Assembly: GCA_021801565.1 (NCBI GenBank)
Contig: JAJYXV010000015.1
Span: 23,839 to 87,838, forward strand
DNA: 64,000 nucleotides
Reading direction: 5' to 3'
DNA from: a bacterium
GTDB taxonomy: Bacteria; Patescibacteriota; Minisyncoccia; UBA6257; GWB1-50-10
Shown: positions 2,083-58,200 of the stretch, in pieces
Layout: each line of letters starts with the position of its first letter
Position numbering within the stretch: position 1 is the first letter of the stretch
Notes under the pieces: generated by a model
Told to the model about the DNA's origin: nothing
The model's input: only the letters and a program-made list of their open reading frames with translations
The model's database searches: none
Made by a program: the position numbers and the translations under genes

Positions 2083-2150
2083 CGAGAATTTTCGGCTAAT
2101 AAAAATAACAAACACTTGATACTTAATACCAAATACCTAATACTTTCCCT

Positions 2151-3239
2151 ATGAAGATTCTTGCGATAGAAACATCGTGTGATGACACGGCAATTGCGCT
2201 CGTGGAGGCGTCAGGCACAATGTCCACACCAAAATTCAAGATTCTAAAGAGTGTAGTATCATCACAAATCAAAATCCATCGCCCGTGGGGTGGTGTGGTT
2301 CCCAACCTCGCAAAGCGTGAGCACATCAAAAATCTTCCAAAGATTTTTGATAAGTTAAAAGTTAAAGGCAAAAAGGCAAAAGTTGATGCAATCTGTGTCA
2401 CCGTCGGACCCGGACTTGAACCGGCACTCTGGGCAGGAATCACATTTGCTAAGGAAATTTATAGACAATTGAAGACTGAAAACCCGACCAAGACGGGCCA
2501 GCCTCAGGCTGGAAAACTAAGGCTTATCGGAGTGAATCACCTGGAGGGACACCTCTACAGTTTTTTGCTCTCACAAAAAACTGTAAATTCTAAACACAAA
2601 ATACTAAATCCTAAATCCTATTCCCCAACCCCCATCTTTCCCGCGATTGCTCTAATTGTTTCTGGGGGACACACCATTCTTCTCAAAATGGACTCGCCTA
2701 TAAAATGGAAAAAACTTGGGGAAACAAAGGATGACGCGGTGGGAGAATCATTCGACAAAGTGGCAAAAATGCTTGGATTTCCCTATCCAGGAGGGCCAGA
2801 GATACAACGCCTTGCCGAGAAAGGAAACCCAAACGCAGTACGATTTCCACGTCCAATGATCGGATCGAAAGATTATAATTTCAGCTATTCGGGACTCAAA
2901 ACCTCTGTACTTTATTACCTCCGCGACAATCCAAAAGCAGAAAAAGAAGATGTAGCAGCAAGTTTTCAAGAAGCGGCACTCGATGTACTCATAAAAAAAA
3001 CCGAGCGGGCAGCACGTGAATATGGTGCAAAATCAATCTTTCTTTCTGGGGGCGTTGCAGCAAATAGTGTGCTTCGTAATAAGTTATTAGTAATTAGTAA
3101 TAAGTTGGGCGCAAATTTCTTTGCGCCACCAATGGATTTTAACACCGATAATGCCGTGATGATTGCGGTTGCGGGATATATGAGTATCCTCCGTAAGAAA
3201 AATAAAAAACTTATTGCGGATGGGAATATGAGGATATAA
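2151..3239 (+). CDS. tsaD: tRNA N6-adenosine threonylcarbamoyltransferase TsaD (Kae1/YgjD)
   Basis: MKILAIETSCDDTAIALV N-terminus, GVNHLEGHL, SGGHT and GGVAAN motifs. It contains an extra insert encoded by TAAATCC repeats. Confidence 0.9.
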   Translation: MKILAIETSCDDTAIALVEASGTMSTPKFKILKSVVSSQIKIHRPWGGVVPNLAKREHIKNLPKIFDKLKVKGKKAKVDAICVTVGPGLEPALWAGITFAKEIYRQLKTENPTKTGQPQAGKLRLIGVNHLEGHLYSFLLSQKTVNSKHKILNPKSYSPTPIFPAIALIVSGGHTILLKMDSPIKWKKLGETKDDAVGESFDKVAKMLGFPYPGGPEIQRLAEKGNPNAVRFPRPMIGSKDYNFSYSGLKTSVLYYLRDNPKAEKEDVAASFQEAALDVLIKKTERAAREYGAKSIFLSGGVAANSVLRNKLLVISNKLGANFFAPPMDFNTDNAVMIAVAGYMSILRKKNKKLIADGNMRI

Positions 3240-5627: not shown

Positions 5628-7811
5628 ATGGAACTTATTACTGGCGCATACGAACCAAAAGAAGCGGAATCGAACATATACGAAAAATGGGAACAATCGG
5701 GATATTTTAATCCAGACAAACTTCCCGGCGAGCGGAATGAAAAATATATTGTCTATATGCCACTTCCCAACGTGACAGGAACACTCCATATGGGACACGC
5801 ACTTGATAATACGCTTCAGGATATTGTTATTCGCTATCATCGAATGAAAGGATATAAAACACTTTGGTTTCCTGGCACCGACCACGCGGGTATTGCAACG
5901 CAGTATGTTGTTGAAAAAGAATTAAAGAAAAGGGGAATAAACCGTTTTGAACTTGGGCGTGAAAAATTTATTGAGAAAATATGGGAGTGGAAAAACAAAT
6001 ACGGAAACACTATTATTGAGCAGTTAAAAAAACTTGGAGTGTCATGTGATTGGTCGCGCATCAGATTCACTATGGACGAGAAATATGCAAAAGATGTGCA
6101 AAATGCATTCGTGCATTACCACGAGAAAGGATTTCTCTATCGTGGAAAACGCGTTGTAAATTGGTGCCCACGCTGTGGTACAAGTCTTTCTGAACTTGAA
6201 CTCGAATATAAAGACGAGAAATCAAAATTGTGGTACATAAAATATAATTTCAAAGATCAAAATTCAAAGATCAAAAGTGTGACTGTTGCAACAACACGAC
6301 CTGAAACAATGTTGGGTGACACCGCGGTTGCGGTACATCCGAAAGATGATCGGTATAAAAATATGATTGGAAAAACTCTTATACTTCCGATTATGCATCG
6401 GGAAATTCCCATTGTTGCTGATGATGCAATAGACATGGAGTTTGGTACGGGTGCGGTCAAAGTTACCCCCGCACATGACATGGTTGATTTTGAAATGGGG
6501 GAGCGACACAAACTTGAAGTAATTCAAGTGATTGATGAACGCGGAAAAATGAATGAAAACGCAGGAATATACAATGAAATGAAAGCGGAAGAGGCACGGG
6601 AAAAGATTGTTGAAAGATTAAAAGGGGAAAAACTTCTTGAAAAAGAGGAGAGCTACGACCACCGGGTCGCGGTTTGCTACCGTTGCGGACACGTGATTGA
6701 GCCGGTTCCCTCACTTCAATGGTTTTTGAGAATGGAAGAACTCGCAAAAAATGCACTTGATGCCGTAAAATCCAAAAAAGTAAAAATCATCCCTAATAAT
6801 TTTGAAAAAAAATATTTCGATTGGCTTGAAAATATCCGCGACTGGACAATCTCGCGTCAGATTTGGTGGGGACACCAAATTCCAGTTTATTTTTGCAAAA
6901 ATAAACTGGAATCAATTTCCAATGAAAATAAAGAAGAGTATGTGGTCTCACTGGAAAGACCAGGAACATGCCCATTTTGTAAAAAATGTGAAATGGAACA
7001 ATCTCCTGATGTGCTCGACACGTGGTTTTCCTCGGCACTTTGGCCGTTTGCAGGACTTTCGGAATCAGATCTCAAAAATTATTATCCAGGAACAACACTT
7101 ATTACCGCGCGCGATATATTAAATCTTTGGGTGGCGCGTATGATTTATTCCGGCATTGAATTTAAAAAAGAACTTCCCTTTACTAACGTATTTATTCACG
7201 GAACGATACTCACCAAAGATGGGAAACGCATGTCGAAAAGTCTTGGCACCGGCATTGATCCGTTGAAATATATTGATCAGTATGGCGCCGACGCAACACG
7301 CTTTGGAATCGTCTGGCAGGCGAGCGGACAAGATATTCGATGGGATGAGACCGCAATTATTGCAGGAAAAAAATTTGCAAATAAATTATGGAACGCGAGT
7401 CGGTTTGTTCTCGCAAACGCTTCGCCAAATGGTATCAGTATAAATCAGCTCAATCCGCATATATCCGCGTCTACGGATGCAGATAAGAAAATTTTAAGGG
7501 CACTTGAGAAAACAAAAGAAAGTATTGAAAGGGATATAAAAAATTTTGAATTTTCGAGACCGCTTCACACCGCATACGATTTTTTCTGGCACGAATTTTG
7601 CGACATTTATCTTGAGATATCAAAGAAACAATTATCTGTCCCGAACGGAAAAGACGAAAACCTGTCGGAAAACACGAAAGCGATACTAATACATGTCCTC
7701 CTCTCTTCCCTTAAAATATTTCATCCCTTCATTCCCTTCATCACTGAAGAAATTTATTCACGTATTCCACTTGAAAACAAAAAAGAATGTCTCATGATTG
7801 AGGAATGGTAA
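5628..7811 (+). CDS. valS: valine--tRNA ligase (short form lacking C-terminal coiled-coil)
   Basis: PLPNVTGTLHMGHA (HIGH) and KMSKSLGTG (KMSKS) motifs, with the ValRS-type N-terminus YEPKEAESNIYEKWEQSGYF. The track start at 5547 is a TTG, so the ATG at 5628 is preferred. Confidence 0.9.
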   Translation: MELITGAYEPKEAESNIYEKWEQSGYFNPDKLPGERNEKYIVYMPLPNVTGTLHMGHALDNTLQDIVIRYHRMKGYKTLWFPGTDHAGIATQYVVEKELKKRGINRFELGREKFIEKIWEWKNKYGNTIIEQLKKLGVSCDWSRIRFTMDEKYAKDVQNAFVHYHEKGFLYRGKRVVNWCPRCGTSLSELELEYKDEKSKLWYIKYNFKDQNSKIKSVTVATTRPETMLGDTAVAVHPKDDRYKNMIGKTLILPIMHREIPIVADDAIDMEFGTGAVKVTPAHDMVDFEMGERHKLEVIQVIDERGKMNENAGIYNEMKAEEAREKIVERLKGEKLLEKEESYDHRVAVCYRCGHVIEPVPSLQWFLRMEELAKNALDAVKSKKVKIIPNNFEKKYFDWLENIRDWTISRQIWWGHQIPVYFCKNKLESISNENKEEYVVSLERPGTCPFCKKCEMEQSPDVLDTWFSSALWPFAGLSESDLKNYYPGTTLITARDILNLWVARMIYSGIEFKKELPFTNVFIHGTILTKDGKRMSKSLGTGIDPLKYIDQYGADATRFGIVWQASGQDIRWDETAIIAGKKFANKLWNASRFVLANASPNGISINQLNPHISASTDADKKILRALEKTKESIERDIKNFEFSRPLHTAYDFFWHEFCDIYLEISKKQLSVPNGKDENLSENTKAILIHVLLSSLKIFHPFIPFITEEIYSRIPLENKKECLMIEEW

Positions 7812-9007: not shown

Positions 9008-9031
9008 AAATCCGCCGAAAGGCGGATTTTT
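9006..9031 (+). terminator. Rho-independent terminator
   Basis: aaaaatccgccgaaaggcggattttt. Confidence 0.8.
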
Positions 9032-11055: not shown

Positions 11056-11531
11056 ATATCAACAATGCGTATTCTCCTTTCTTTCGATCCAAACTGGGTA
11101 ATAATTTCATCTCCAATTTTTTTCCCAAGAAGATTCTTTCCAATGGGAGAATTTTCTCCAATTACTATGATTCTGTTCCCTAATTCATCTTCAATTTGTA
11201 TTCCAGACCCCCCTTTAAGGAAAAGATAATTTATCTCTTTTTCCCCGTCTCGAATTTTTATAAGACTCCCTTCGCATATTTCTTTTTTTGGTATTGTGGA
11301 TATTATTTCAAATTTCTCTAATATTTCTAATTCTCCATTTTTTACAGAAAGTTGTTTTTCAATATCATCCTTCAGTGCATTCATTTGAAACTTTGTGGTA
11401 TCGCTATGTGATTGCATTGCTCCGGGCGCTTCAACAGCCGCTTTCCGCATTGAAAGTATGTTTTTTTCAAGTTCATCCACTTCTTTTTGAAGTTTTTCCA
11501 CCACCTTTTCTACAAGTGCTTTTTTGTCCAT
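11049..11531 (-). CDS. greA: transcription elongation factor GreA
   Basis: N-terminal coiled-coil followed by a C-terminal FKBP-like domain (ISTIPKKEICEGSLIKIRDGEKEINYLFLKGGSG). Confidence 0.85.
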   Translation of the reverse strand: MDKKALVEKVVEKLQKEVDELEKNILSMRKAAVEAPGAMQSHSDTTKFQMNALKDDIEKQLSVKNGELEILEKFEIISTIPKKEICEGSLIKIRDGEKEINYLFLKGGSGIQIEDELGNRIIVIGENSPIGKNLLGKKIGDEIITQFGSKERRIRIVDIC

Positions 11532-11568
11532 ATATACAAAATACCAGAAAACTGACTTATTTGTTCTA

Positions 11569-11598
11569 TTGACAAATGGATATATAATATGGTATAAT
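11569..11598 (+). promoter_or_regulatory. sigma70 promoter TTGACA-N18-TATAAT
   Basis: ttgacaaatggatatataatatggtataat. Downstream is an AGGAG Shine-Dalgarno 8 nt before the ATG at 11671. Confidence 0.6.
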
Positions 11599-11670
11599 CA
11601 AAACAGAAAGTTAAGAAGTAAATAATCAGACTAGAATAGAATTTTTTCAGAAAGTTTTAAAGGAGAGATA

Positions 11671-11943
11671 ATGAAAAACTTATTTTTGAAAATATGGTTT
11701 TCCGGGAAGATTTATTTTTATGTATCTTTCCAGGCAACTGTATATCTTGGTGCCTTATACGGAATTTGTTTATATTTCGTCCCACCTGCATTCCTTAATA
11801 ATTTTGGTGGCACCTGGGGAAAAATTTTCGTAGGAGATTTTCTCCTTATAATGATCTTTTATCCCCTTGTTGTTTTTGAGGGGACAAAGAGATTCTACAG
11901 GGACCAGATGTTCCTGTATGAACTTTACAAGGATGAGTTATAA
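11671..11943 (+). CDS. small hydrophobic membrane protein
   Basis: 90-aa ORF with a consensus promoter, a strong SD and an immediate terminator. Confidence 0.6.
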   Translation: MKNLFLKIWFSGKIYFYVSFQATVYLGALYGICLYFVPPAFLNNFGGTWGKIFVGDFLLIMIFYPLVVFEGTKRFYRDQMFLYELYKDEL

Positions 11944-11968
11944 AGCGGCATTAAATAATGCCGCTTTT
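11943..11968 (+). terminator. Rho-independent terminator
   Basis: agcggcattaaataatgccgctttt. Confidence 0.75.
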
Positions 11969-12081
11969 CCTTATTTTCGAATATAACATATTCCAGCCGA
12001 TCGATATTTATATGTTACATTAAAAATAAAACCCCTTCGCGGGGTTCTATCTTTAATGTCTCCCATTATTCCCTCTACTAC

Positions 12082-14118
12082 TTACATAAAGAGCGTCACC
12101 AGCGCGAGTGTAAGTGTACTTAACAATTTGATAAGCACATGGAGTGATGGGCCCGCGGTGTCCTTAAACGGATCGCCGACCGTGTCTCCAGTTACCGCCG
12201 CTTTGTGAGCATCAGAACCTTTCCCGCCTAGATTTCCTTCTTCAATCCATTTCTTTGCATTATCCCACGCACCACCCGCATTGTTCATGAGTGTTGCAAG
12301 GAGAATTCCCGCAATCGTTCCCACCATCAAAAGTCCTGCCGCCGCTTCCGCTTTAAACACAACACCAACAACAACCGGCACTACCACCGCGAGAAACCCC
12401 GGAAGAATCATTTCTTTCAATGCTCCTTTTGTGGTGATATCAATTGCCTTCGAGTAGTCCGGCTTTTCCGTTCCTTCCATAATTCCCGGATGTTCTTTAA
12501 ATTGCCTGCGCACTTCATTAATAATGTAATATGCTGCGCGTCCTACTGCACGAATTGAAAGACTTGAAAATAAAAACACAAGCATCGCACCCAACATCGC
12601 ACCGATAAAGACCGGAATTTTTGCAAGATCAACAACGGTAATTTTTGCTTCTTCAAGATATGCGGAAAACAATAAAAACGCCGCAAGTGCCGCCGAACCA
12701 ATCGCATATCCTTTTGTAAGTGCCTTTGTTGTATTTCCCGCTGAATCAAGTTTATCGGTATTTTTTCTTATTGAATCAGGAGCGCCTGACATCTCAACAA
12801 TTCCTCCCGCATTATCGACGATGGGACCGAATGTATCCATTGCAAGAATATATGCCGCACTCGCGAGCATTCCCATGGTTGCGATTGCGGTTCCATATAA
12901 TCCCCCTCCCGAAATTCCCGAAAGCTCTCCAAATTTATATGAAGTAAAAAGTGCAACTACAATCGCCACAATAGTCACTCCAACCGATTCAAGTCCCACT
13001 GCAAACCCCTGAATAATATTTGTTGCGTGTCCTGTTTTTGATGCTTCCGCAACTTCCCGCACTGGACGATATTTTGACTCAGTATAATATTGCGTGAAAT
13101 ATACAAATACAATCGACATGAAAATTCCAACAAGTCCAGCCGCGAAAAACCACATGTTTCCGAGAAGATATTTTGTCGCAAAATAAAATGCAATTGCAGA
13201 AAGTACGCTCGTAACCCAATATCCGCGATCAAGTGATTTCATCGGATCTTCATTCTCTTTTGGTCTCACTGAAAAGATTCCAACAATAGAAGCAATGAGT
13301 CCTAATGCGCGAACCACGAGCGGAAATAAAATTCCGCTTAAACCAAACACAGGATAGAGTGCAACTCCTAAAATCATTGCACCAATATTTTCCGCAGCAG
13401 TCGATTCAAAGAGATCAGCTCCCCTTCCTGCACAATCACCAACATTATCTCCCACAAGATCTGCAATAACCGCAGGATTTCTCGGATCATCTTCTGGAAT
13501 TCCTGCTTCGATTTTTCCCACTAAATCAGCTCCTACGTCGGCAGCTTTTGTATAAATTCCACCTCCAAGCTGGGCAAAAAGAGCAACCAAACTTGCACCA
13601 AATCCATATCCAACAATAAGGTGTGGAATTTTTATCACTTCATACCCAAGAACTGTATAGATTTCAAATAGCCCCGAAATTCCCAAAAGCGAAAGCGATA
13701 CGATGGTGATCCCAGAAACCGCCCCTCCACGAAGCGCAATGAGCATTGCTCCTTTAATTCCGTTTTGTGCTTCCGCCGCAGAACGAATATTCGTTCGCAC
13801 ACTCATCCACATTCCCACAAGTCCTGCAATTGCCGAAGAAACCGCTCCAATTACAAATGCAATTGCGGTTTTTGTCCCCATACTAAAATCCCCTGATGCT
13901 CCGTATGCAGCCACAAGTCCTATGGCACCAAGTGCAATAATCACACTAATTGTCGTATATTGACGTTTTAAAAATGCATTTGCGCCGATACGAATTGCAT
14001 CAGCAACTGCTTTCATTTTTTCGGTCCCCGTCTGTTTTTTTAACACTGCGAGAGCCATGTGTGCCGCTACACAAAGCGAAAAAATAGCGACAACAATCGA
14101 TAGAATGTTGTAGTTCAT
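12082..14118 (-). CDS. hppA: membrane-bound proton/sodium-translocating pyrophosphatase
   Basis: 16 TM helices with the GADLVGK and DNVGDCAGRGADLFE signature motifs. Confidence 0.9.
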   Translation of the reverse strand: MNYNILSIVVAIFSLCVAAHMALAVLKKQTGTEKMKAVADAIRIGANAFLKRQYTTISVIIALGAIGLVAAYGASGDFSMGTKTAIAFVIGAVSSAIAGLVGMWMSVRTNIRSAAEAQNGIKGAMLIALRGGAVSGITIVSLSLLGISGLFEIYTVLGYEVIKIPHLIVGYGFGASLVALFAQLGGGIYTKAADVGADLVGKIEAGIPEDDPRNPAVIADLVGDNVGDCAGRGADLFESTAAENIGAMILGVALYPVFGLSGILFPLVVRALGLIASIVGIFSVRPKENEDPMKSLDRGYWVTSVLSAIAFYFATKYLLGNMWFFAAGLVGIFMSIVFVYFTQYYTESKYRPVREVAEASKTGHATNIIQGFAVGLESVGVTIVAIVVALFTSYKFGELSGISGGGLYGTAIATMGMLASAAYILAMDTFGPIVDNAGGIVEMSGAPDSIRKNTDKLDSAGNTTKALTKGYAIGSAALAAFLLFSAYLEEAKITVVDLAKIPVFIGAMLGAMLVFLFSSLSIRAVGRAAYYIINEVRRQFKEHPGIMEGTEKPDYSKAIDITTKGALKEMILPGFLAVVVPVVVGVVFKAEAAAGLLMVGTIAGILLATLMNNAGGAWDNAKKWIEEGNLGGKGSDAHKAAVTGDTVGDPFKDTAGPSLHVLIKLLSTLTLALVTLFM

Positions 14119-23405: not shown

Positions 23406-24245
23406 TTATCTTTCCTGCTTTTCGACTAAAATAAAAAAATTTTCAAAAAGTTTCGCCACAAGTATGGGACCCGTGCCACCGGGTGTTGGAGTGAAGTCAA
23501 TTTTCAATTCACAATTTTCAATTTTCAATTTTTCTGAATTAAAATCTCCAACCAATTGCCATTCGTCATTTGCCATTTGCTTTTTTCCATATCCAAAATC
23601 AATCACTAAAACCTTTTCTTTTAACATACCTTGAGAAACAAGATGTGGCTGACCGGTTCCAAGTATCACTATATCGGCATTTTTAATGAGTGAATAATCA
23701 CCTCCTTTATCCAAAAGATATAAATCTGAGACTTTTCCCTTGAGCCATGTCGCAATCGGTTTTCCAACAAGATTTCCAAGTCCCACAACGCCAACTTTTT
23801 TTTCGCTTAATATAAGATTTTGATTTTTTAATATTTCTTCAACCACACCAACTGCGGGAGGTAATATAAAATTTCTTCCGGCATAAAACGCACCGAGTGC
23901 GCGTTCACCCAACACATCAACATCTTTTTCCCGAGGAATCACGTTCATCACATATTGTGCGTTCACGTGAGAGGGGAGAGGAAGTTGTACAATCACACCG
24001 CCACATGTTTTGTGATTTGTAATTTTTAAAATTTCTTTTCGTAACCTATCCTGCGTTATATCCTCCTCAAGTTTGTATACTCTAAAGTCAATATTGAGCG
24101 CCTTCGCTATTTTTTCCTTCTGTTTCAAAAAACTTACTGACGCAGGATTCTCTCCAATTAAAAATGCCGCAAAAAACTTTTTTGTTTTTTTCTCTTTTAT
24201 TTTAGTTAAAATTCCCTCAGCGATTTTTTTTCCATCAATAACCAT
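23406..24245 (-). CDS. folD: bifunctional methylenetetrahydrofolate dehydrogenase/cyclohydrolase
   Basis: FolD family with a GxGxxVG NAD(P) motif. It carries an extra insert, NSEKLKIENCELKID, encoded by GAAAATT repeats. Confidence 0.8.
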   Translation of the reverse strand: MVIDGKKIAEGILTKIKEKKTKKFFAAFLIGENPASVSFLKQKEKIAKALNIDFRVYKLEEDITQDRLRKEILKITNHKTCGGVIVQLPLPSHVNAQYVMNVIPREKDVDVLGERALGAFYAGRNFILPPAVGVVEEILKNQNLILSEKKVGVVGLGNLVGKPIATWLKGKVSDLYLLDKGGDYSLIKNADIVILGTGQPHLVSQGMLKEKVLVIDFGYGKKQMANDEWQLVGDFNSEKLKIENCELKIDFTPTPGGTGPILVAKLFENFFILVEKQER

Positions 24246-24663: not shown

Positions 24664-25959
24664 TTAAGGCAAAATCGGAAACTTTTTACAAAGTTTTTTT
24701 ATATCCACTTGTATCGTCAATTTTTTTTGAGTTTGTAGCAACGAATCAGAAATAAGATGTGCGATTAATCTCATTTCTTTTTCTTTCATTCCGCGTGTCG
24801 TAAGTGCGGGGGTACCAACACGAATTCCTGATGGGTTGGTAGGTTTTTGTGTGTCGTAGGGAATTGTGTTTTTATTCACGATAATTCCAACACCTTCCAA
24901 CAAATCACTCGCTTCGCCTCCACTTATTCCTTTTTCCATTGTATTAACTAAAAACAAGTGCGAGTCAGTTCCTCCCGAAATAATTTTCCATCCAATTTTT
25001 TTAAGCTCCTCCGCAAGTGCCTTCGAATTTTTTACCACCTGTTTTGAATATATCCTAAATTGATTTGTGTCGGCCTCGCTTAATGCAACTCCGATTGCCG
25101 CGATTGTATTCATGTGTGGTCCACCCTGAATTCCTGGGAAAACAATTTTATTAATGGCCTCTGCAATTGATAGTTTCGAATTTTGAATTTTGAATTTTGA
25201 ATTTGTTTGAGATTTGAGATTTGAGATTTGAGATTTTCTTGCAAATATAAGTGCCGCTCGCGGACCGCGGAGTGTTTTGTGTGTGGTAGTGGTCACTACA
25301 TGCGCGTAGGTGAAGGGGGATGGATATGCGCCTCCTGCAACAAGTCCCGCAAAATGAGACATATCTACCATAAATATCGCTCCTACTGCATCTGCAATTT
25401 TTCTCATCTTCTTGAAATCAATAATTCGCGCGTATGCACTTCCTCCCGCAATAAGAAGTGTTGGTTTTTCTTTTTTTGCGATTTTCAAAACCTCATCATA
25501 GTTTATTTTTTCTGTTTTTTTATCCACTCCGTAGGGGACCTGTTTCCATAGTTTTCCTGTCACGCTTACACGATATCCGTGCGTAAGGTGACCCCCCATA
25601 TCGAGCGCCATTGCCATGATTTTTGAACCAACAGGAATAAGTGCATGATAGACTGCGAGATTTGCGGGAGATCCAGAATATGGCTGCACATTCACATCCC
25701 ACATTTTTCGATCCGCCGGCTGGCGGATAAATAACTTTAACGCACGTGATTGTACCAACTCTTCAAGTTCGTCCACGTGCTTATTGCCCGCATAATAACG
25801 CGCTCGCGTGTATCCTTCGGCGTATTTATTGGTAAATACACTTGCCAGTGCCTCGCGTACGCCTGGTGAAACATAATTTTCCGAAGCGATAAGATTCAGC
25901 GTCTCATTCTGCCGAATTTTCTCTTTTCTAACAAGTTGTCGCATCTCTCTATCTCTCAT
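24664..25959 (-). CDS. glyA: serine hydroxymethyltransferase
   Basis: SHMT family with the PLP-Lys region HVVTTTTHKTLRGPR. It contains a repeat-encoded insert, RKSQISNLKSQTNSKFKIQNSKLS. Confidence 0.9.
   Translation of the reverse strand: MRDREMRQLVRKEKIRQNETLNLIASENYVSPGVREALASVFTNKYAEGYTRARYYAGNKHVDELEELVQSRALKLFIRQPADRKMWDVNVQPYSGSPANLAVYHALIPVGSKIMAMALDMGGHLTHGYRVSVTGKLWKQVPYGVDKKTEKINYDEVLKIAKKEKPTLLIAGGSAYARIIDFKKMRKIADAVGAIFMVDMSHFAGLVAGGAYPSPFTYAHVVTTTTHKTLRGPRAALIFARKSQISNLKSQTNSKFKIQNSKLSIAEAINKIVFPGIQGGPHMNTIAAIGVALSEADTNQFRIYSKQVVKNSKALAEELKKIGWKIISGGTDSHLFLVNTMEKGISGGEASDLLEGVGIIVNKNTIPYDTQKPTNPSGIRVGTPALTTRGMKEKEMRLIAHLISDSLLQTQKKLTIQVDIKKLCKKFPILP
25177..25237. repeat. heptanucleotide tandem repeats (GAATTTT)x4 + (GAGATTT)x4 inside glyA coding sequence
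   Basis: cgaattttgaattttgaattttgaatttgtttgagatttgagatttgagatttgagatttt. Confidence 0.85.
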
Positions 25960-26171: not shown

Positions 26172-26239
26172 TCTTATTGTATCAAATATGAATTTTTTGT
26201 TCCTCTCTAGGTTTGAGATTTGATTTTTGAGATTCTAAT

Positions 26240-29319: not shown

Positions 29320-30000
29320 GTGCAAATCAGAAGTATTATGACCCGTCTAAAAGATAGAGAAAAAGCAATTAAATTACGAAAACAAGGAAAAAGTTACAGC
29401 CAGATAAAAACAATTATTGGCGTGAATAAGGGGACATTAAGTTATTGGCTAAAAGATTTTCCACTTGAAGAAAAACGACTTCGAGAATTGCGAGACTGGA
29501 ATCAAGTGCGTATTGAACACTATCGAAAAACAAGAACTCTAAAAAGAGAAAATATATAAAAAGAAATATATAAAAAACAAAAGAGCGCTATATTTCCACT
29601 CTCTAAAAGAGATCTTTTTATTGCCGGTCTTTTCTTATACTGGGGCGAGGGCTCAAAAACAAGATTTTCAGAACTCGCTGTTGCCAACACGGATCCTTCA
29701 GTGCCAAAATTTTTTATTTATTGGGTCACCGTTTTTTTGGGTATAGAAAAGTCAAAAATAAAAATACACCTTCATCTCTATAGTGATATGAATATAGAAA
29801 ATGAAACGACATTCTGGTCTGAAACATTGAAAATCCAAAAAAAACAATTTATGAAGCCTTATATAAAAGATTCTTTGTTTAAAAAGATTAATCGCGGATC
29901 ATTCGGTCATGGTACTTGCACGATAAGAGTTGGAAATGCTAAAGTTGCTAAAGAAACCTTAATGGGATTAAGGGTGATTCAAGATCATTTCGGCCCGTAG
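29320..30000 (+). pseudogene. HTH + LAGLIDADG-like putative homing-endonuclease/transposase-related gene interrupted by one in-frame TAA (29557)
   Basis: ORFs 29320..29559 and 29701..30000 are in the same frame, and the intervening codons encode KEIYKKQKSAIFPLSKRDLFIAGLFLYWGEGSK... The N-terminal HTH is KAIKLRKQGKSYSQIKTIIGVNKGTLSYWL. The ORF stop overlaps tRNA positions 8-10. Confidence 0.5.
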
Positions 30001-30062
30001 CTCAGTGGTAGAGCAACGCCCTTATAAGACGTGGGTCGCAGGTCCGATCCCTGCCGGGCCGA
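29991..30062 (+). tRNA. tRNA-Ile-like (anticodon TAT), atypical
   Basis: CGGCCCG TA GCTC AGTGGTA GAGC A ACGCC CTTATAA GACGT GGGTC GCAGG TCCGATC CCTGC CGGGCCG A. There is one C-A mismatch in the anticodon stem and an unusual T-loop (TCCGATC). Confidence 0.5.
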
Positions 30063-30063
30063 C

Positions 30064-30107: not shown

Positions 30108-31523
30108 TCATTTCATTACTATCTGTTTTATTCCCGATGCTTTAATAATTTCGTTAAATTCTTCCTGTTCAATCGTTTCGTTTTCCATAAGTTTCCGTGC
30201 GATAATATCAAGTGTGTCTTTATTTGTAGTGATAATTTTCTTTGCTGTTTCAAGTGACTTTTTCATAATCACATTCATTTCGGAATCAATCATCTCTCCC
30301 GTTTTTTCCGAATAATCTTTTTCCGAAGAAATCTCGCGTCCCAAAAACATAAGTTCATGATTTTTTCCGAGTGTCCGTGGACCAATCACATCGCTCATTC
30401 CATATCGCGTAATTGCTTTATGTGCAAGATCGGTTGCATATTGAATATCGCTCGATGACCCAGTGCTTACATCCTTAAATATAATTGACTCTGCGGCATA
30501 TCCACCAAATGATACCGCGAGATCGGCAAGAAATTGCGCCTTTGTTTTCAATCGTCGTTCTTCGATCGGAAGTTTTAATGTATATCCTCCCGCCATCCCA
30601 CGGCTAATAATCGTCACTTTGTGTACCGGATCACTATCTTTCAGTGTTGCCGCAACAAGTGCGTGTCCCGCTTCGTGATACGCAGTGATTTCTCTTTCTT
30701 TTTGAATCGTCACGCGCGAACGTCGTGCGGGACCAAGTAATACTTTTTCAATTGAATTTAATATGTCGTCCTGCGTCACCTTCTTTCTTCCTGCGCGCGC
30801 AGTTACAATTGCCGCTTCATTTAAAAGGTTTGCAAGATCTGCGCCAGAAAAACCCGGCGTACGAGTTGCCACTACCTTCAAATTCACTGATTCATCAAAT
30901 GGTTTTCCCTTTGCATGAATCTTCAAAATATCCTCACGATCGTGAAGATCGGGCATATCAAGGAGAACGCGCCGATCAAAGCGTCCCGGACGAAGGAGTG
31001 CCTGGTCCAAAATATCGGGACGATTGGTTGCTGCCATCACAATTACATTGGTATCTCGTTCAAATCCATCCATTTCTACAAGTATCTGGTTCAGCGTCTG
31101 TTCGCGCTCGTCGTGTCCGCCCCCAAGTCCCGCTCCGCGTTCACGTCCCACCGCGTCTATTTCGTCGATAAAAATGATTGAAGGAGCTGCCTTTTTTGCG
31201 GTTTGAAATAAATCGCGGACACGTGATGCGCCAACCCCCACAAACATTTCAACAAATTCCGATGCCGAAAGATGAAAGAAGGGGACATTGCTTTCTCCTG
31301 CAACTGCACGAGCGAGAAGTGTTTTTCCGGTTCCCGGAGGACCCATTAAGAGGACTCCGCGAGGAATTTTTGCACCAATATCCAAAAACTTTTTCGGATT
31401 TTTCAAAAAATCCACCACCTCCTCCAACTCTTCTTTTGATTCTTTCAAACCCGCGACATCTTTAAATGTAATTTTGTCTTTATCTTGAGAAAAAAGACAA
31501 ATATTTATTTTTCCAAATGACAT
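30108..31523 (-). CDS. ftsH: ATP-dependent zinc metalloprotease FtsH, AAA+ and protease domains
   Basis: AMSFGK...[14 protein letters not shown] Walker A, DEIDAVG Walker B and the HEAGHA zinc motif. Confidence 0.85.
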
Positions 31524-31550
31524 TGCTTGAATTGCTCAACCCTTCGCCTG

Positions 31551-31973
31551 TCAAAAAATAAACCAAAATAAAAAAATCATAAAAAATATTGGGAGAAGCG
31601 TAGGAATTAAAATACCCATCCAATATTTAAATCCGCTCGGATCCTCGACGGTAATATTTACCTTTCTTAGTTTCTCCTTATCAACACCATAATTTGAAAG
31701 TGTTTCTACAATACCGCTCTCGCTTTCTTTTTTTGAGAGCGCGAGAGAATCATCGGTGAGCGTAATCTTTAAATCGTTTCCGCTAATTACGATGTTTTTT
31801 ACTCCATCGGTGTTTACCTTATCTGCAAGTTCGCTCATATTCATAGTCTTCGGTGGTGTTCCTTCCATTTCAAAAAGAAATGAAAAAATAACCGTGACAA
31901 ATAAGAGAAGTGTAATCGCAAAAATAAGATTTTTACTTAAATTTTTCATATGTTTTCCACTATCATAACGCAT
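31551..31973 (-). CDS. ftsH: FtsH N-terminal membrane/periplasmic domain (same frame as 30108..31523, separated by two TGA codons)
   Basis: TM1, a periplasmic domain and TM2 (WMGILIPTLLPIFFMIFLFWFIF). The frame continues [13 protein letters not shown]. Confidence 0.6.
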   Translation of the reverse strand: MRYDSGKHMKNLSKNLIFAITLLLFVTVIFSFLFEMEGTPPKTMNMSELADKVNTDGVKNIVISGNDLKITLTDDSLALSKKESESGIVETLSNYGVDKEKLRKVNITVEDPSGFKYWMGILIPTLLPIFFMIFLFWFIF

Positions 31974-45536: not shown

Positions 45537-45568
45537 AAAACCATCCGCCAGCTGGCGGATGGTTTTTG
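45537..45568 (+). terminator. Rho-independent terminator
   Basis: aaaaaccatccgccagctggcggatggttttt. Confidence 0.8.
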
Positions 45569-50725: not shown

Positions 50726-51568
50726 ATGGGACAAAAATTAGGACAACATTTTTTAAAGAATAAAAAAATACTTCAGATAATTGCCGGGGCAGCTGAATTG
50801 CGTGATGGTGAAACCGTGATTGAAGTCGGTCCAGGACACGGGGAGCTCACAGAGCACCTCAAATCTCAAACCTCAAATCTCAAAAATTGCAAAATAATTT
50901 TGATCGAGAAAGATAAGGCACTTGCTGAACAACTGGAGAAAAAATTTGAAAAAGATAAAAATATAAAAATTATTTATGGAGATGCTTTAAAAATACTTTC
51001 CAGGGTTGTCTCTTCTCTCTCACATAAATCTTCTTCTCTGGGCCCCAGTTATATACTTGTTGGAAATATTCCTTACTACATCACCGGATATTTGCTTCGA
51101 ACAATTCAAGAACTAAAAAATAGACCAACTCGTACAATCGTTATGATACAAAAAGAGGTCGCTGAGCGTATTGTAAAAAAACCACCGGAAATGAATTTAC
51201 TTGCCGCAAGCGTGGCATATTGGGCTGATGCCGCAATTATTATGAGCGTATCAAAAAAAGAATTTGTCCCACAACCAAAAATTGATTCTGCGGTAATCGC
51301 GCTTCATACAAAAAGAACACACTTAAAAAATAGTGGGGGAGAAGAAAAAAAATATTATAAAACACTTGGTATATTATTCAAACAACCAAGAAAAACAATA
51401 AAAAATAATATAACGTTATCGTATCGATCGGCTAGTAAATGTAACACCGGAGAAAAAGAGGAGATATTTAAGAGGTTAAAAAAAACAGGAATAGATATTG
51501 AGCAACGATCACAGAACTTAAGCGTAGAGGAAATAAGAAGGGTCGCAAATGTTATATGTACAAAATAA
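50726..51568 (+). CDS. rsmA: 16S rRNA (adenine1518/1519-N6)-dimethyltransferase
   Basis: MGQKLGQHFLKN...VIEVGPGHGELTE...VGNIPYYIT. It has an insert, LKSQTSNLKNCK, encoded by AAATCTC repeats. Confidence 0.9.
   Translation: MGQKLGQHFLKNKKILQIIAGAAELRDGETVIEVGPGHGELTEHLKSQTSNLKNCKIILIEKDKALAEQLEKKFEKDKNIKIIYGDALKILSRVVSSLSHKSSSLGPSYILVGNIPYYITGYLLRTIQELKNRPTRTIVMIQKEVAERIVKKPPEMNLLAASVAYWADAAIIMSVSKKEFVPQPKIDSAVIALHTKRTHLKNSGGEEKKYYKTLGILFKQPRKTIKNNITLSYRSASKCNTGEKEEIFKRLKKTGIDIEQRSQNLSVEEIRRVANVICTK
50857..50895. repeat. heptanucleotide repeat (CTCAAAT/CTCAAAC) inside rsmA
   Basis: cctcaaatctcaaacctcaaatctcaaaaattgcaaaat. Confidence 0.8.
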
Positions 51569-56934: not shown

Positions 56935-58200
56935 ATGGAAGAGATGAATGACATTCCACAAACCATACGTGATCAAATAGGATCAGGAAAAATTATCGCA
57001 ACCATTGATTCAATCAATGAGCGTGCCGACATTGCGCGTCTTGATATTATTCCACAACTTGTATATGACGTGCTTTCAAGGGGTGTTCCCGCAAAAGATT
57101 TTATTTCACACTGTTCGGGTGTTTTAAACTTCAATCAAAAAAAGTTGAAAGCGGTGGTGCGAGAAATAAAAGAAAAAATATTGAAACAATTTGATTATGC
57201 GCTTTTGAACTATGGGGTAGATATAAAAGAGATAGATGTGTCAGATGCGATGACGCTTGATGAATACACAAAACAACATAATGAGATGCTTGCTTCTGTT
57301 GGTATTGAGGTTGAAAAACCAGTTTCTACAATTTCTCTCGAAAATTTCTCGGACACCGAACCAGAAAATCTTGGTCCGGTGAAAATAAGCGTAAGCGGAC
57401 CCACTGACGAAACCACAAAAAAAATTGAAGTAACCGAAGAACCCGCACCACTTGTAATACATAGAGAAAAACCACAAACGGCCGCACAAGAGAATCTACC
57501 AACTAAGGGATACTCACAACAAACAAGGGGGTTTTCCCTCCCATTTGGGTTTTTTAAACAAAAAATTGTGCAAACACAAGCGCCATCAACACCAGTGAAA
57601 GCAACGATTGAATTTTGGAAGAAAGATGAACCAAAAAAACGCGCTGTTGATTATAGTGAGTTGAGAACACCACTTACGCCTTTTGCCGGACTAACCAACA
57701 ACAAGCAACCAACAACCGACAACACTAAAATAACTGACATCGGGATAAAAGAAACTGACCGCGCTCAAACACAGCCAATAACTCAGAAAATAAATCCACT
57801 TATGATGTTTGGAAACAAACAAACGACAAACAACCCTCAACCAACAACACAAAAAGAGGGGGGTGGCATCCTTGATATTAGGACGGGGGAGAGAAACGAC
57901 AAACAACCGAAAATCGAAAACTTAAGAGAAAATACAAAAACATCCGCCCAAGGCGGACCGGCCTCGGGTCGGCAGACCGCTCCAGTAATAAATACCGTTC
58001 CAAAACAAAACACACCCACCGAGCAAAAACCAACTCCAAACCCACAACAGCAAAAAACCGAAGGTCAAAAAGGAAAGGGGTTTGTCTGGTTTAAAAAACC
58101 AACGCAGAAAAGTACAACGATAACTAACAACAACACAGACAAAGATCCGAGAATCGAAGGAAACACGGTTGATCTACGATCAACAAACAATGAAAAATAA
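56935..58200 (+). CDS. hypothetical protein with Thr/Gln/Pro-rich C-terminal region
   Basis: 421-aa ORF that abuts the preceding gene with a 3-nt gap. Confidence 0.5.
   Translation: MEEMNDIPQTIRDQIGSGKIIATIDSINERADIARLDIIPQLVYDVLSRGVPAKDFISHCSGVLNFNQKKLKAVVREIKEKILKQFDYALLNYGVDIKEIDVSDAMTLDEYTKQHNEMLASVGIEVEKPVSTISLENFSDTEPENLGPVKISVSGPTDETTKKIEVTEEPAPLVIHREKPQTAAQENLPTKGYSQQTRGFSLPFGFFKQKIVQTQAPSTPVKATIEFWKKDEPKKRAVDYSELRTPLTPFAGLTNNKQPTTDNTKITDIGIKETDRAQTQPITQKINPLMMFGNKQTTNNPQPTTQKEGGGILDIRTGERNDKQPKIENLRENTKTSAQGGPASGRQTAPVINTVPKQNTPTEQKPTPNPQQQKTEGQKGKGFVWFKKPTQKSTTITNNNTDKDPRIEGNTVDLRSTNNEK

Follow-up and report, generated by a model that had tools for sequence, protein, structure and literature searches.

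A heptanucleotide-repeat insert in glyA as a probable copy of a dispersed, frame-neutral short element in Patescibacteria

How can a tandem repeat with a period of seven nucleotides (nt), which is not a multiple of three, reside within the reading frame of an essential gene? The question is raised by glyA, the gene for serine hydroxymethyltransferase (SHMT), on a 64,000-nt stretch of contig JAJYXV010000015.1 (assembly GCA_021801565.1; hereafter the window), whose nearest named relatives are Jorgensenbacteria and other Patescibacteria. A first-pass annotation of this DNA had described (AAATCTC)x4, a spacer, and (AAAATTC)x3 on the minus strand of glyA, and the sequence matches this description exactly (Table 1). 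We consider it probable that the glyA repeat is one copy of a translated, frame-neutral, dispersed short element built from 7-nt units.

The product of the glyA open reading frame (ORF) aligns with solved SHMTs at E = 1.5e-120 and exceeds Thermus SHMT by ~20 residues directly after HKTLRGPR, the motif with the lysine that binds pyridoxal phosphate, which bears out the extra peptide noted earlier in an otherwise conserved enzyme. The block comprises two adjoining period-7 arrays (100% and 95% matches, 4.4 copies; Tandem Repeats Finder), and the insert consists of nine 7-nt units in register, bordered on the coding strand by GCA AGA before and TCA ATT GCA after the array. Compared with locus L143 (L numbers denote loci fetched for this analysis), which is the closest orthologue without insert and not necessarily the pre-insertion state, it adds 63 nt, that is 9 x 7 = 21 x 3, and its 21 codons encode SQISNLKSQTNSKFKIQNSKL. 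Thus, the reading frame is kept because the total length of 63 is divisible by three, as had been proposed; the glyA copy is the only one sized exactly, as repeat boundaries at other sites are too crude for a length modulo 3. An identical GlyA protein is called on five contigs of independent assemblies, including NCBI GCA_027423585.1 and one ENA assembly, and relatives at 96–98% identity carry an insert peptide identical to that of the window. Consequently, an assembly artefact, which the annotation had named as a possibility, is ruled out.

The same composite is found in unrelated genes. A Nealsonbacteria argS contains, in frame, AAATCCC AAATAAC AAATTCC AAATTAC AAACAAATTC (AAAATTC)4 AAAATTG, which aligns ungapped with the glyA insert along 63 nt at 87% identity; the flanks are unrelated. 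In a metagenome scan, the exact 25-mer CAAACAAATTCAAAATTCAAAATTC, which spans the junction between both arms, occurs at 89 loci, ~70 of them distinct. Alignment of these loci shows that conservation sets in abruptly 27 nt upstream, with (AAATYCC)x4, and tapers off ~37 nt downstream, and that the flanks beyond these edges are unrelated between sites. The canonical form reads (AAATYCC)x4-AAAC-(AAATTCA)x4, nine units in 63–66 nt. Since the left arm lay outside the search pattern, its fixed four-unit length provides independent evidence for a defined element of this size. A profile built from 70 metagenome copies matches the glyA element at E = 2.6e-11. Contigs with the 25-mer span 26% to 62% GC.

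Most copies lie within genes, and always in one orientation. At least 40 ORF codons flank 51 of the ~75 distinct copies on each side, and all 51 place the A-rich forward strand on the coding strand. The forward strand of the consensus is open in all three frames, while the reverse strand contains stops in all three. Together, the uniform orientation of the intragenic copies and the stop-free forward frames form a signature of translation. All three frames are used (26, 18, and 7 intragenic copies), and because 7 and 3 have no common factor, each frame yields the same cyclic heptapeptide, read as ...QTNSKFKIQNSK..., ...KQIQNSKFKIQN..., or ...NKFKIQNSKFKI.... The 40 host proteins scanned span at least 20 Pfam families with housekeeping functions. 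The largest group is formed by the Val/Ile/Leu-tRNA synthetases, alongside ArgRS; further hosts are TsaD, TsaE, HypF/Kae1-like proteins, MiaA, TrmD, an RsmI-like methylase, GatA, and GatB, as well as Mur ligase, topoisomerase I (TopA), DNA polymerase I (PolA), UvrA, UvrC, RNase HII, TatD, FemAB, GT1 glycosyltransferases, YfhO, and Wzy.

Prevalence was estimated from DNA because peptide searches are insensitive to short low-complexity queries, which are penalised: a 48-residue concatenated insert peptide gave two weak matches among 40 candidates, and a 30-residue phmmer query gave one match among 1.84 billion representatives. The 1.49 Mb of collected DNA, a set biased towards the element, contains 305 period-7 arrays (177 within long ORFs) versus at most 57 for any other period. 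Period-7 arrays also occur in ~19 of the 51 loci fetched through GlyA.

Six loci of 49–57% GC (L071, L085, L108, L125, L127, and L141) carry the AT-rich element between genes, immediately past a stop codon and a GC-rich hairpin. The protein encoded next to the L125 copy has its best named relatives in Acidobacteria, with relatives on contigs of up to 3.6 Mb, and therefore the element is not confined to the Candidate Phyla Radiation (CPR), to which Patescibacteria correspond. At L125 (2340–2450), and likewise at the five other loci, the element stands between the hairpin CAGCCGGAAGACCGGCTG and heptamer arrays of the ACCTGGA type. Moreover, L042 (1385–1447), from Tidjanibacter sp. (Bacteroidota), displays a nine-unit GAATTTT/GCATTTT array upstream of glyA that the element profile detects at E = 2e-5; AAAATTC-type arrays therefore also exist outside CPR bacteria. 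Two further intergenic copies, at L117 (~2890–2960) and L076 (~650–730), are followed by their own reverse complement and form long AT-rich inverted repeats.

The AlphaFold2 model of GlyA, built on an alignment of 24 sequences, has a mean predicted local distance difference test (pLDDT) score of 81.5. Residues 248–261 fall below 50 and are modelled as low-confidence coil without secondary structure, and a helix starts immediately past the insert. This suggests that the glyA insert occupies a tolerant surface loop, in line with the location anticipated in the first-pass annotation; comparison with homologues places all window arrays checked (glyA, tsaD, folD, and rsmA) at gaps relative to solved proteins. 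A coiled-coil heptad was considered for the insert and rejected, as the i, i+2 spacing of F and I is that of a strand and not the a/d spacing of a heptad, and no helix is modelled there. At the RNA level, the minimum-energy fold of the glyA array leaves the whole array unpaired (z = +1.09), 176 of 200 shuffled sequences fold at least as well, and no Rfam family matches the element.

We aligned 24 GlyA orthologues and compared three syntenic loci (L143, L144, and L145) with the window at the DNA level. L144 (85% GlyA identity) contains AAATCTC AAAACTC AAAACTC AAATTTC AAATAAATTC AAAATTA AAAATTA AAAATTC GAAACTA, and L145 (Jorgensenbacteria, 71% identity) contains (AAATCCC)4 AAATAAATTC (AAAATTC)3 AAAATTA. 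L143 (80% identity) is exactly 21 codons shorter at this site. The insert was expected to be lineage-specific; instead, orthologues of the Jorgensenbacteria type (71% identity) have the same 63-nt array at the same glyA site, and others at 61–68% have a decayed version, while nearer relatives at 77–84% lack it. Nor was any length instability seen, although a slippage-prone element had been suggested: the insert measures 63 nt in window, L144, and L145 alike, that is in all three sequenced orthologues, it is identical at 96–98% identity, and no length polymorphism was seen among the five contigs, the aligned orthologues, and the syntenic loci.

While the length of the glyA insert is constant, its units change in concert. 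All four left units differ between window and L145 by the identical single base (CTC versus CCC); two of these four parallel changes are synonymous, and the other two replace a residue (S to P, L to P). In L144, adjacent pairs of units bear a common new change (AAAACTC x2, AAAATTA x2). Further, whole left arms consist of private variants (AATTTCC x4, AATAACC, AAATCCG), and across 70 copies the identity of units within a copy amounts to 0.718, compared to 0.615 +/- 0.006 after shuffling between copies. Each copy thus shows concerted evolution of its units at the DNA level.

Between window and L145, the insert is 89% identical, whereas the adjacent coding flanks reach only ~73%. This excess, changes that ignore codon position, and the presence of the same sequence in distant phyla would equally be expected of a cis-acting nucleic-acid signal under selection, such as a platform on DNA or mRNA for single-strand-binding cold-shock or S1-type proteins, for a nucleoid protein, or for a DNA-uptake receptor; coding copies would then be retained for their usefulness. 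The RNA of the array is predicted to be fully unstructured, hence accessible, and CspB has been reported to bind heptamer repeats with one protein per heptamer (PMC4679880). However, copies differ freely in the unit of their left arm (AAATCTC, AATTTCC, AATAACC, AAATCCG), a close relative has the folD array swapped for units of an unrelated type and nothing else changed, other close relatives lack the glyA copy altogether, and no binding protein is known. We therefore regard selection for such a signal as unlikely.

Whole arrays are gained, lost, exchanged, or interrupted at the same loops in close relatives. The folD loop holds (GAAAATT)x5 in the window, the same array with a nested 21-nt GC-rich hairpin CCTGCCTGCCGGTAGGCACGG in L143, an unrelated ACAACCA/ACAACTG array in L144, and GGAAATT/GAAAATT units in L145. 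In TsaD, the loop YPGGP...LPRPM holds a copy in L060, L116, and L131, with two different frames among them, and a second TsaD loop bears the canonical element in L101 and a degenerate array in the window. Analogously, the ValRS site before VTVATTRPET contains the canonical 63-nt element in L123 and a heptamer array in the window. In ~20 orthologous proteins compared between window and L143, four of the six internal indels of at least four residues are heptamer arrays or hairpin modules. Copies at different sites differ in unit number, as far as crude boundary calling permits.

Table 1. Heptamer arrays and GC-rich hairpins of the window, with the host gene of the composite element.
Feature	Position	Strand	Sequence or product	Basis or remark
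glyA (serine hydroxymethyltransferase), host gene	24664..25959	-	431-aa ORF	Pfam PF00464 on identical protein
Composite heptamer element in glyA	25171..25236	-		Read from minus-strand sequence
Left arm of glyA element	25209-25236	-	(AAATCTC)x4	
Junction between both arms of glyA element		-	AAACAAATTC	
Right arm of glyA element	25178-25198	-	(AAAATTC)x3	
Degenerate unit closing glyA element	25171-25177	-	GAAACTA	
Array in tsaD	2584..2620	+	TAAATTC TAAACAC AAAATAC TAAATCC TAAATCC, encoding VNSKHKILNPKSY	Period-7 scan
Array upstream of tsaD	2104..2145	+	ACTTGAT ACTTAAT ACCAAAT ACCTAAT ACTTTCC	Ends 5 nt upstream of tsaD start codon
Array in folD	23497..23534	-	~(GAAAATT)x5, encoding EKLKIENCELKID	Period-7 scan
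Second array in folD	23552..23580	-	GCAAATG type, KQMANDEWQLV	Tandem Repeats Finder
Array in rsmA/ksgA	50855..50887	+	CTCAAAT units (= AAATCTC unit of glyA left arm), encoding HLKSQTSNLKN	
Array in valS	6249..6276	+	(TTCAAAGATCAAAA x2), encoding FKDQNSKIKS	Just before VTVATTRPET
Intergenic array	26208..26236	-	AATCTCA AAAATCA AATCTCA AAC	Begins 4 nt past upstream stop codon
Hairpin in glyA	25712..25727	-	TCCGCC-GGCT-GGCGGA, in frame as IRQPADR	Hairpin scan
Hairpin in tsaD	2498..2512	+	CCAGCC-TCA-GGCTGG, in frame within 12-aa insertion TKTGQPQAGKLR	
Hairpin in ORF 56935-58200	57943-57972		In frame	Hairpin scan
Terminator-like intergenic hairpins, same type	9011-9026 (then T-run) and 45544-45559			Hairpin scan

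The window as a whole is rich in heptamer arrays (Table 1). It contains five to seven period-7 regions versus none in Markov shuffles, while other periods from 3 to 15 yield zero to two, so that period 7 is the only tandem-repeat period enriched. Dimers of AAATCTC with at most two mismatches occur 10 times versus 1.7 expected, a count reached in none of 100 shuffles; AAAATTC dimers alone are not significant in the window (13 versus 8.8 expected). Relative to homologues, the tsaD array adds ~15 residues (Thermotoga TsaD), the first folD array ~4–5 (solved FolD proteins), and the rsmA array five (solved KsgA proteins, in the loop past the GxGxG motif); the second folD array is a five-residue indel (QMAND, CAAATGGCAAATGAC) relative to L143. 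The gene upstream of the intergenic array encodes an RNase-H-fold exonuclease. The first-pass annotation had described related units at tsaD, folD, rsmA, and between genes. Period-7 arrays are indeed present at these sites, in ORFs and in the intergenic region alike, but the AAATCTC unit of glyA is common only to the rsmA and intergenic arrays, while those of tsaD, folD, and valS are built from other A-rich units. The profile of the canonical element misses the tsaD, folD, rsmA, and valS arrays, so that none of these is counted as a copy; those of tsaD, folD, and valS are not recognisable copies of it.

Such diversity of units between window arrays, together with their homogeneity within a copy and the dominance of period 7 in unrelated genomes with quite different units, is compatible with purely local microsatellites, in which slippage acts on an A-rich seed at each site and likeness results from mutational bias and stop avoidance. 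A polymerase preference for 7-nt slips has been proposed in those passages of PMC4692102 and PMC4679880 that cite Mrazek et al. 2007. For the canonical element, however, this explanation is refuted by the 89-locus result: an identical 25-nt junction of two unit types with a four-unit left arm at ~70 sites in at least 20 families cannot arise independently. In addition, an AT-rich copy resides inside a 57%-GC genome, and the length of the glyA insert is unchanged across orthologues. As a general account, local slippage is decidedly unlikely; it probably explains the homogenisation of units and some non-canonical arrays, not the dispersal of the composite.

At the protein level, the glyA insert peptide is ~70–80% identical in orthologues that are 66–71% identical overall, and every frame gives the same cyclic peptide, as would suit a functional module in which KSQIxNx/KFKIQNS heptapeptide repeats are selected as a flexible flap or interaction tag on translation-related enzymes. 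An additional segment is also present at this place in eukaryotic SHMTs. Against this, the concerted changes are as often synonymous as they are non-synonymous (S to P, L to P), pointing to a DNA-level process; the insert is missing in the nearest relatives at 77–84% identity; copies lie in diverse host families and at diverse loop positions; AlphaFold2 gives low-confidence coil for the glyA insert; and copies also lie between genes. We hold a selected peptide to be highly unlikely. That the element never reaches the mature protein, being cut out of the mRNA, skipped in translation, or an assembly artefact, has no direct support, was considered since a period that is not a multiple of three is unexpected in an essential gene, and is so improbable that it can be set aside: a removed element would face no strand, stop, or length constraint, yet all 51 intragenic copies lie on the stop-free strand of an unbroken ORF, the glyA insertion is exactly 21 codons, neither RNA structure nor Rfam match was found, and the sequence is identical in independent assemblies.

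GC-rich hairpins accompany the arrays (Table 1). The in-frame hairpins account for small insertions relative to homologues; that of glyA explains ~6 residues extra to Thermus SHMT and is present or absent among GlyA orthologues (IRQPADRK versus KISSK or LSPK). In some metagenome copies of the composite, hairpins of the TCCGCC-N4-GGCGGA type stand between the arms or next to them. In other genomes (L074, L087, L095, L118, L137, L143, and L144), related hairpins adjoin heptamer arrays or are nested within them. A 21-nt module of seven codons, CCTGCCTGCC[GA]G[TC]AGGCACGG, occurs in L143 folD (within 11215–12084) and near the 5' end of L090, beside or inside a heptamer array on both of these unrelated contigs, and may represent a separate dispersed mini-module. 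The arrays thus appear to be one part of a mosaic of very short modules with coding-compatible lengths of 15, 21, and 63 nt.

Several further features of the window were recorded. The five-unit array upstream of tsaD occupies the position expected for the ribosome-binding site and recalls the start-codon-proximal TAACTGA repeats of Beggiatoaceae. Within tsaD itself, AAAATTCAAGATTC at 2231–2244 (+) encodes KFKIL in a small N-terminal insertion (MSTPKFKILK) relative to Thermotoga TsaD and may be a remnant of another array. ORF 56935–58200 (+) encodes a T/Q/P/N-rich low-complexity protein with ACAACCA-type arrays at 57693–57723 and 57813–57849; units of the same family take the place of the folD array in L144, a close relative. 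An FtsH-like gene at 30108–31973 (-) is split into ORFs of 471 and 140 aa at a T run (junction ~31523–31553) and forms a single ORF of 640–681 aa in the syntenic L143 and L144, so that the split reflects a frameshift or pseudogene, or else an assembly error in the homopolymer. Finally, a tRNA-Ile with anticodon TAT is located at 29991–30063 (+); this anticodon is unusual in bacteria, where AUA is normally read by a lysidine-modified CAT anticodon.

Among known systems, the closest are heptanucleotide repeats, to which the cyanobacterial short tandemly repeated repetitive (STRR) sequences, likewise tandem heptamers, belong. Among long simple repeats, heptanucleotides are described as the most strongly over-represented class in many prokaryotes, and polymerase footprint and slippage are offered as the explanation, where PMC4692102 and PMC4679880 cite Mrazek et al. 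2007. TAACTGA direct repeats have a patchy distribution across Beggiatoaceae, Cyanobacteria, and Bacteroidetes, for which "no mechanism evident" is noted; most of them lie between genes, and in ORFs they adopt the stop-free orientation only, once in an RNA polymerase beta-prime-like surface loop (PMC4679880). In the Beggiatoa genome, all but 25 of 169 repeat sets are intergenic, and the intragenic ones lie mostly in hypothetical proteins (PMC4679880). Like the element described here, TAACTGA and the Xanthomonas GGGAATC repeats are tandem 7-nt units in sets of two to nine with mixed related heptamers; known heptanucleotide repeats also exceed repeats of other periods in over-representation, occur in scattered phyla in a manner suggesting horizontal transfer, and are, as some of the present arrays are, placed next to start and stop codons (PMC4679880, PMC4692102). 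In contrast to these mainly intergenic repeats, 51 of the ~75 canonical copies lie inside long ORFs, deep in conserved essential enzymes, and the entire two-arm nine-unit composite rather than the unit alone is conserved between genes and phyla. Copy-number steps of 7 nt between close strains, as would be expected of an STRR/TAACTGA-type repeat, are not seen at the glyA site. The element is best filed as a conserved, mainly intragenic nine-unit composite, a variant of the known heptanucleotide-repeat phenomenon. Our literature search retrieved no description of the composite, nor of heptamer arrays within the housekeeping genes of CPR bacteria, which is not proof of novelty.

Rickettsia palindromic elements (RPEs) are short dispersed repeats of ~100–150 bp that are palindromic, lie in frame in essential genes, are translated, and are tolerated in surface regions. 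The comparison with RPEs drawn in the first-pass annotation is apt as an analogy: the present element resembles them in its in-frame, tolerated, dispersed insertion into many conserved and essential protein-coding genes, and differs in being 63–66 nt long and tandem, with no predicted hairpin, and in occurring in Patescibacteria and other phyla. Repetitive extragenic palindromes (REPs), bacterial interspersed mosaic elements (BIMEs), REP doublets forming hairpins (REPINs), and the small dispersed repeats of Nostoc share with the present elements the character of very short dispersed mosaic repeats, and REP units are resembled by the TCCGCC-N4-GGCGGA hairpins that accompany or are nested in the arrays. 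Nesting of one small repeat within another was reportedly described among the Nostoc repeats by Elhai et al. 2008. REP-type elements are, however, extragenic, palindromic, and dependent on REP-associated tyrosine transposases (RAYTs), whereas heptamer arrays are neither palindromic nor confined to extragenic DNA. The tandem repeats of Borgs are likewise A-rich, lie in ORFs, and add probably disordered low-complexity segments; slippage is discussed as their origin, with flanking partial repeats (PMC9879509). Inside ORFs, every Borg repeat has a unit length that is a multiple of three, and no two loci have the same repeat (PMC9879509). The unit found here, in contrast, is 7 nt long, and the same sequence recurs at many loci.

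Membership in several established classes was rejected. A Borg-type amino-acid tandem repeat does not fit a 7-nt unit, which is not divisible by three. A miniature inverted-repeat or insertion-sequence-derived miniature transposon is at odds with the lack of terminal inverted repeats and of target-site duplications above chance, and an RPE or REP with the lack of a palindrome or RNA structure. A phase-variable contingency locus is discounted by hosts that are essential housekeeping enzymes and by the lack of length variants at the glyA site. An intein, an intron, or translational bypass disagrees with the strict strand and frame compatibility, with the lack of structure and of an Rfam family, and, for an intein, with a length of only 21 residues.

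How a dispersed frame-neutral element could come to rest in glyA may be pictured as follows. The element would have been copied and pasted into many genomic places in Patescibacteria and at least one other phylum, and selection would have kept the harmless copies, namely those with a strand that is stop-free in any frame, a length divisible by three, and a position in tolerant loops or between genes. Copies inside genes would be transcribed and translated together with their host and add to it a flexible peptide rich in K, N, S, Q, I, and F; as three consecutive units pass through all three frames, the same cyclic heptapeptide would result whatever the entry phase. After insertion, intra-array slippage or gene conversion may homogenise the units, and whole arrays may be lost, replaced, or invaded by GC-rich hairpin modules. 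Overall, the inserts may be neutral or selfish rather than useful. Anatomy, distribution, strand and frame pattern, loop position, presence or absence among relatives, and concerted evolution are well supported by the data, and the first-pass interpretation holds up in its broad lines.

Several points weigh against this explanation. The 89 loci were chosen by junction and right arm, so that conservation of that part is circular. The longest substring shared by the two flanks averages 4.03 nt versus 3.85 +/- 0.12 for mismatched pairs, providing no target-site duplication; TTGCA, found on both sides of the glyA copy, was considered as such a duplication and discarded, as it fails to generalise across copies. 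Terminal inverted repeats are absent, the arms being direct and devoid of self-complementarity. No associated transposase or reverse transcriptase was identified, though they were not systematically searched for, and the 25-mer is absent from 2.9 million viral contigs, leaving no known vector. The selfish character suggested by the first-pass annotation accordingly loses ground, as mobility is deduced from the distribution only and no transposition signature was found. Translation, too, is deduced rather than observed. The glyA insert itself is old, being common to orthologues at 61–71% protein identity, and requires no recent transposition. Lastly, the tsaD, folD, and valS arrays are not detectably the canonical element, so that some arrays may arise locally.

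A bolder form of the dispersed-element explanation is tentative and, in our judgement, rather doubtful. It holds that the composite and the hairpin modules might constitute an undescribed class of actively mobile mini-element specialised for protein-coding genes, moved between loci and between phyla that share groundwater and sediment habitats by an unrecognised trans-acting machinery or by uptake and integration of short DNA. The 7-nt unit would then be an adaptation, stop-free and encoding the same peptide in every frame. If so, such elements would rank as a main origin of the loop insertions seen across the reduced CPR proteomes.

The tiny genomes of CPR bacteria are taken to be streamlined, with little mobile DNA, yet the same 63-nt repeat block recurs in loops of their best-conserved enzymes, namely aminoacyl-tRNA synthetases, TsaD, SHMT, FolD, topoisomerase I, and DNA polymerase I. 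If the composite is a real dispersed element, it would explain many of the puzzling insertions that complicate the alignment and annotation of CPR proteins, and its copies would provide a natural map of insertion-tolerant loops in essential enzymes. It would also offer a sequence-defined and widespread case for asking why heptanucleotide repeats are favoured and how they move. Moreover, it would demonstrate how a period that is not a multiple of three can live in genes: nine units restore the frame, and every frame encodes the same peptide.

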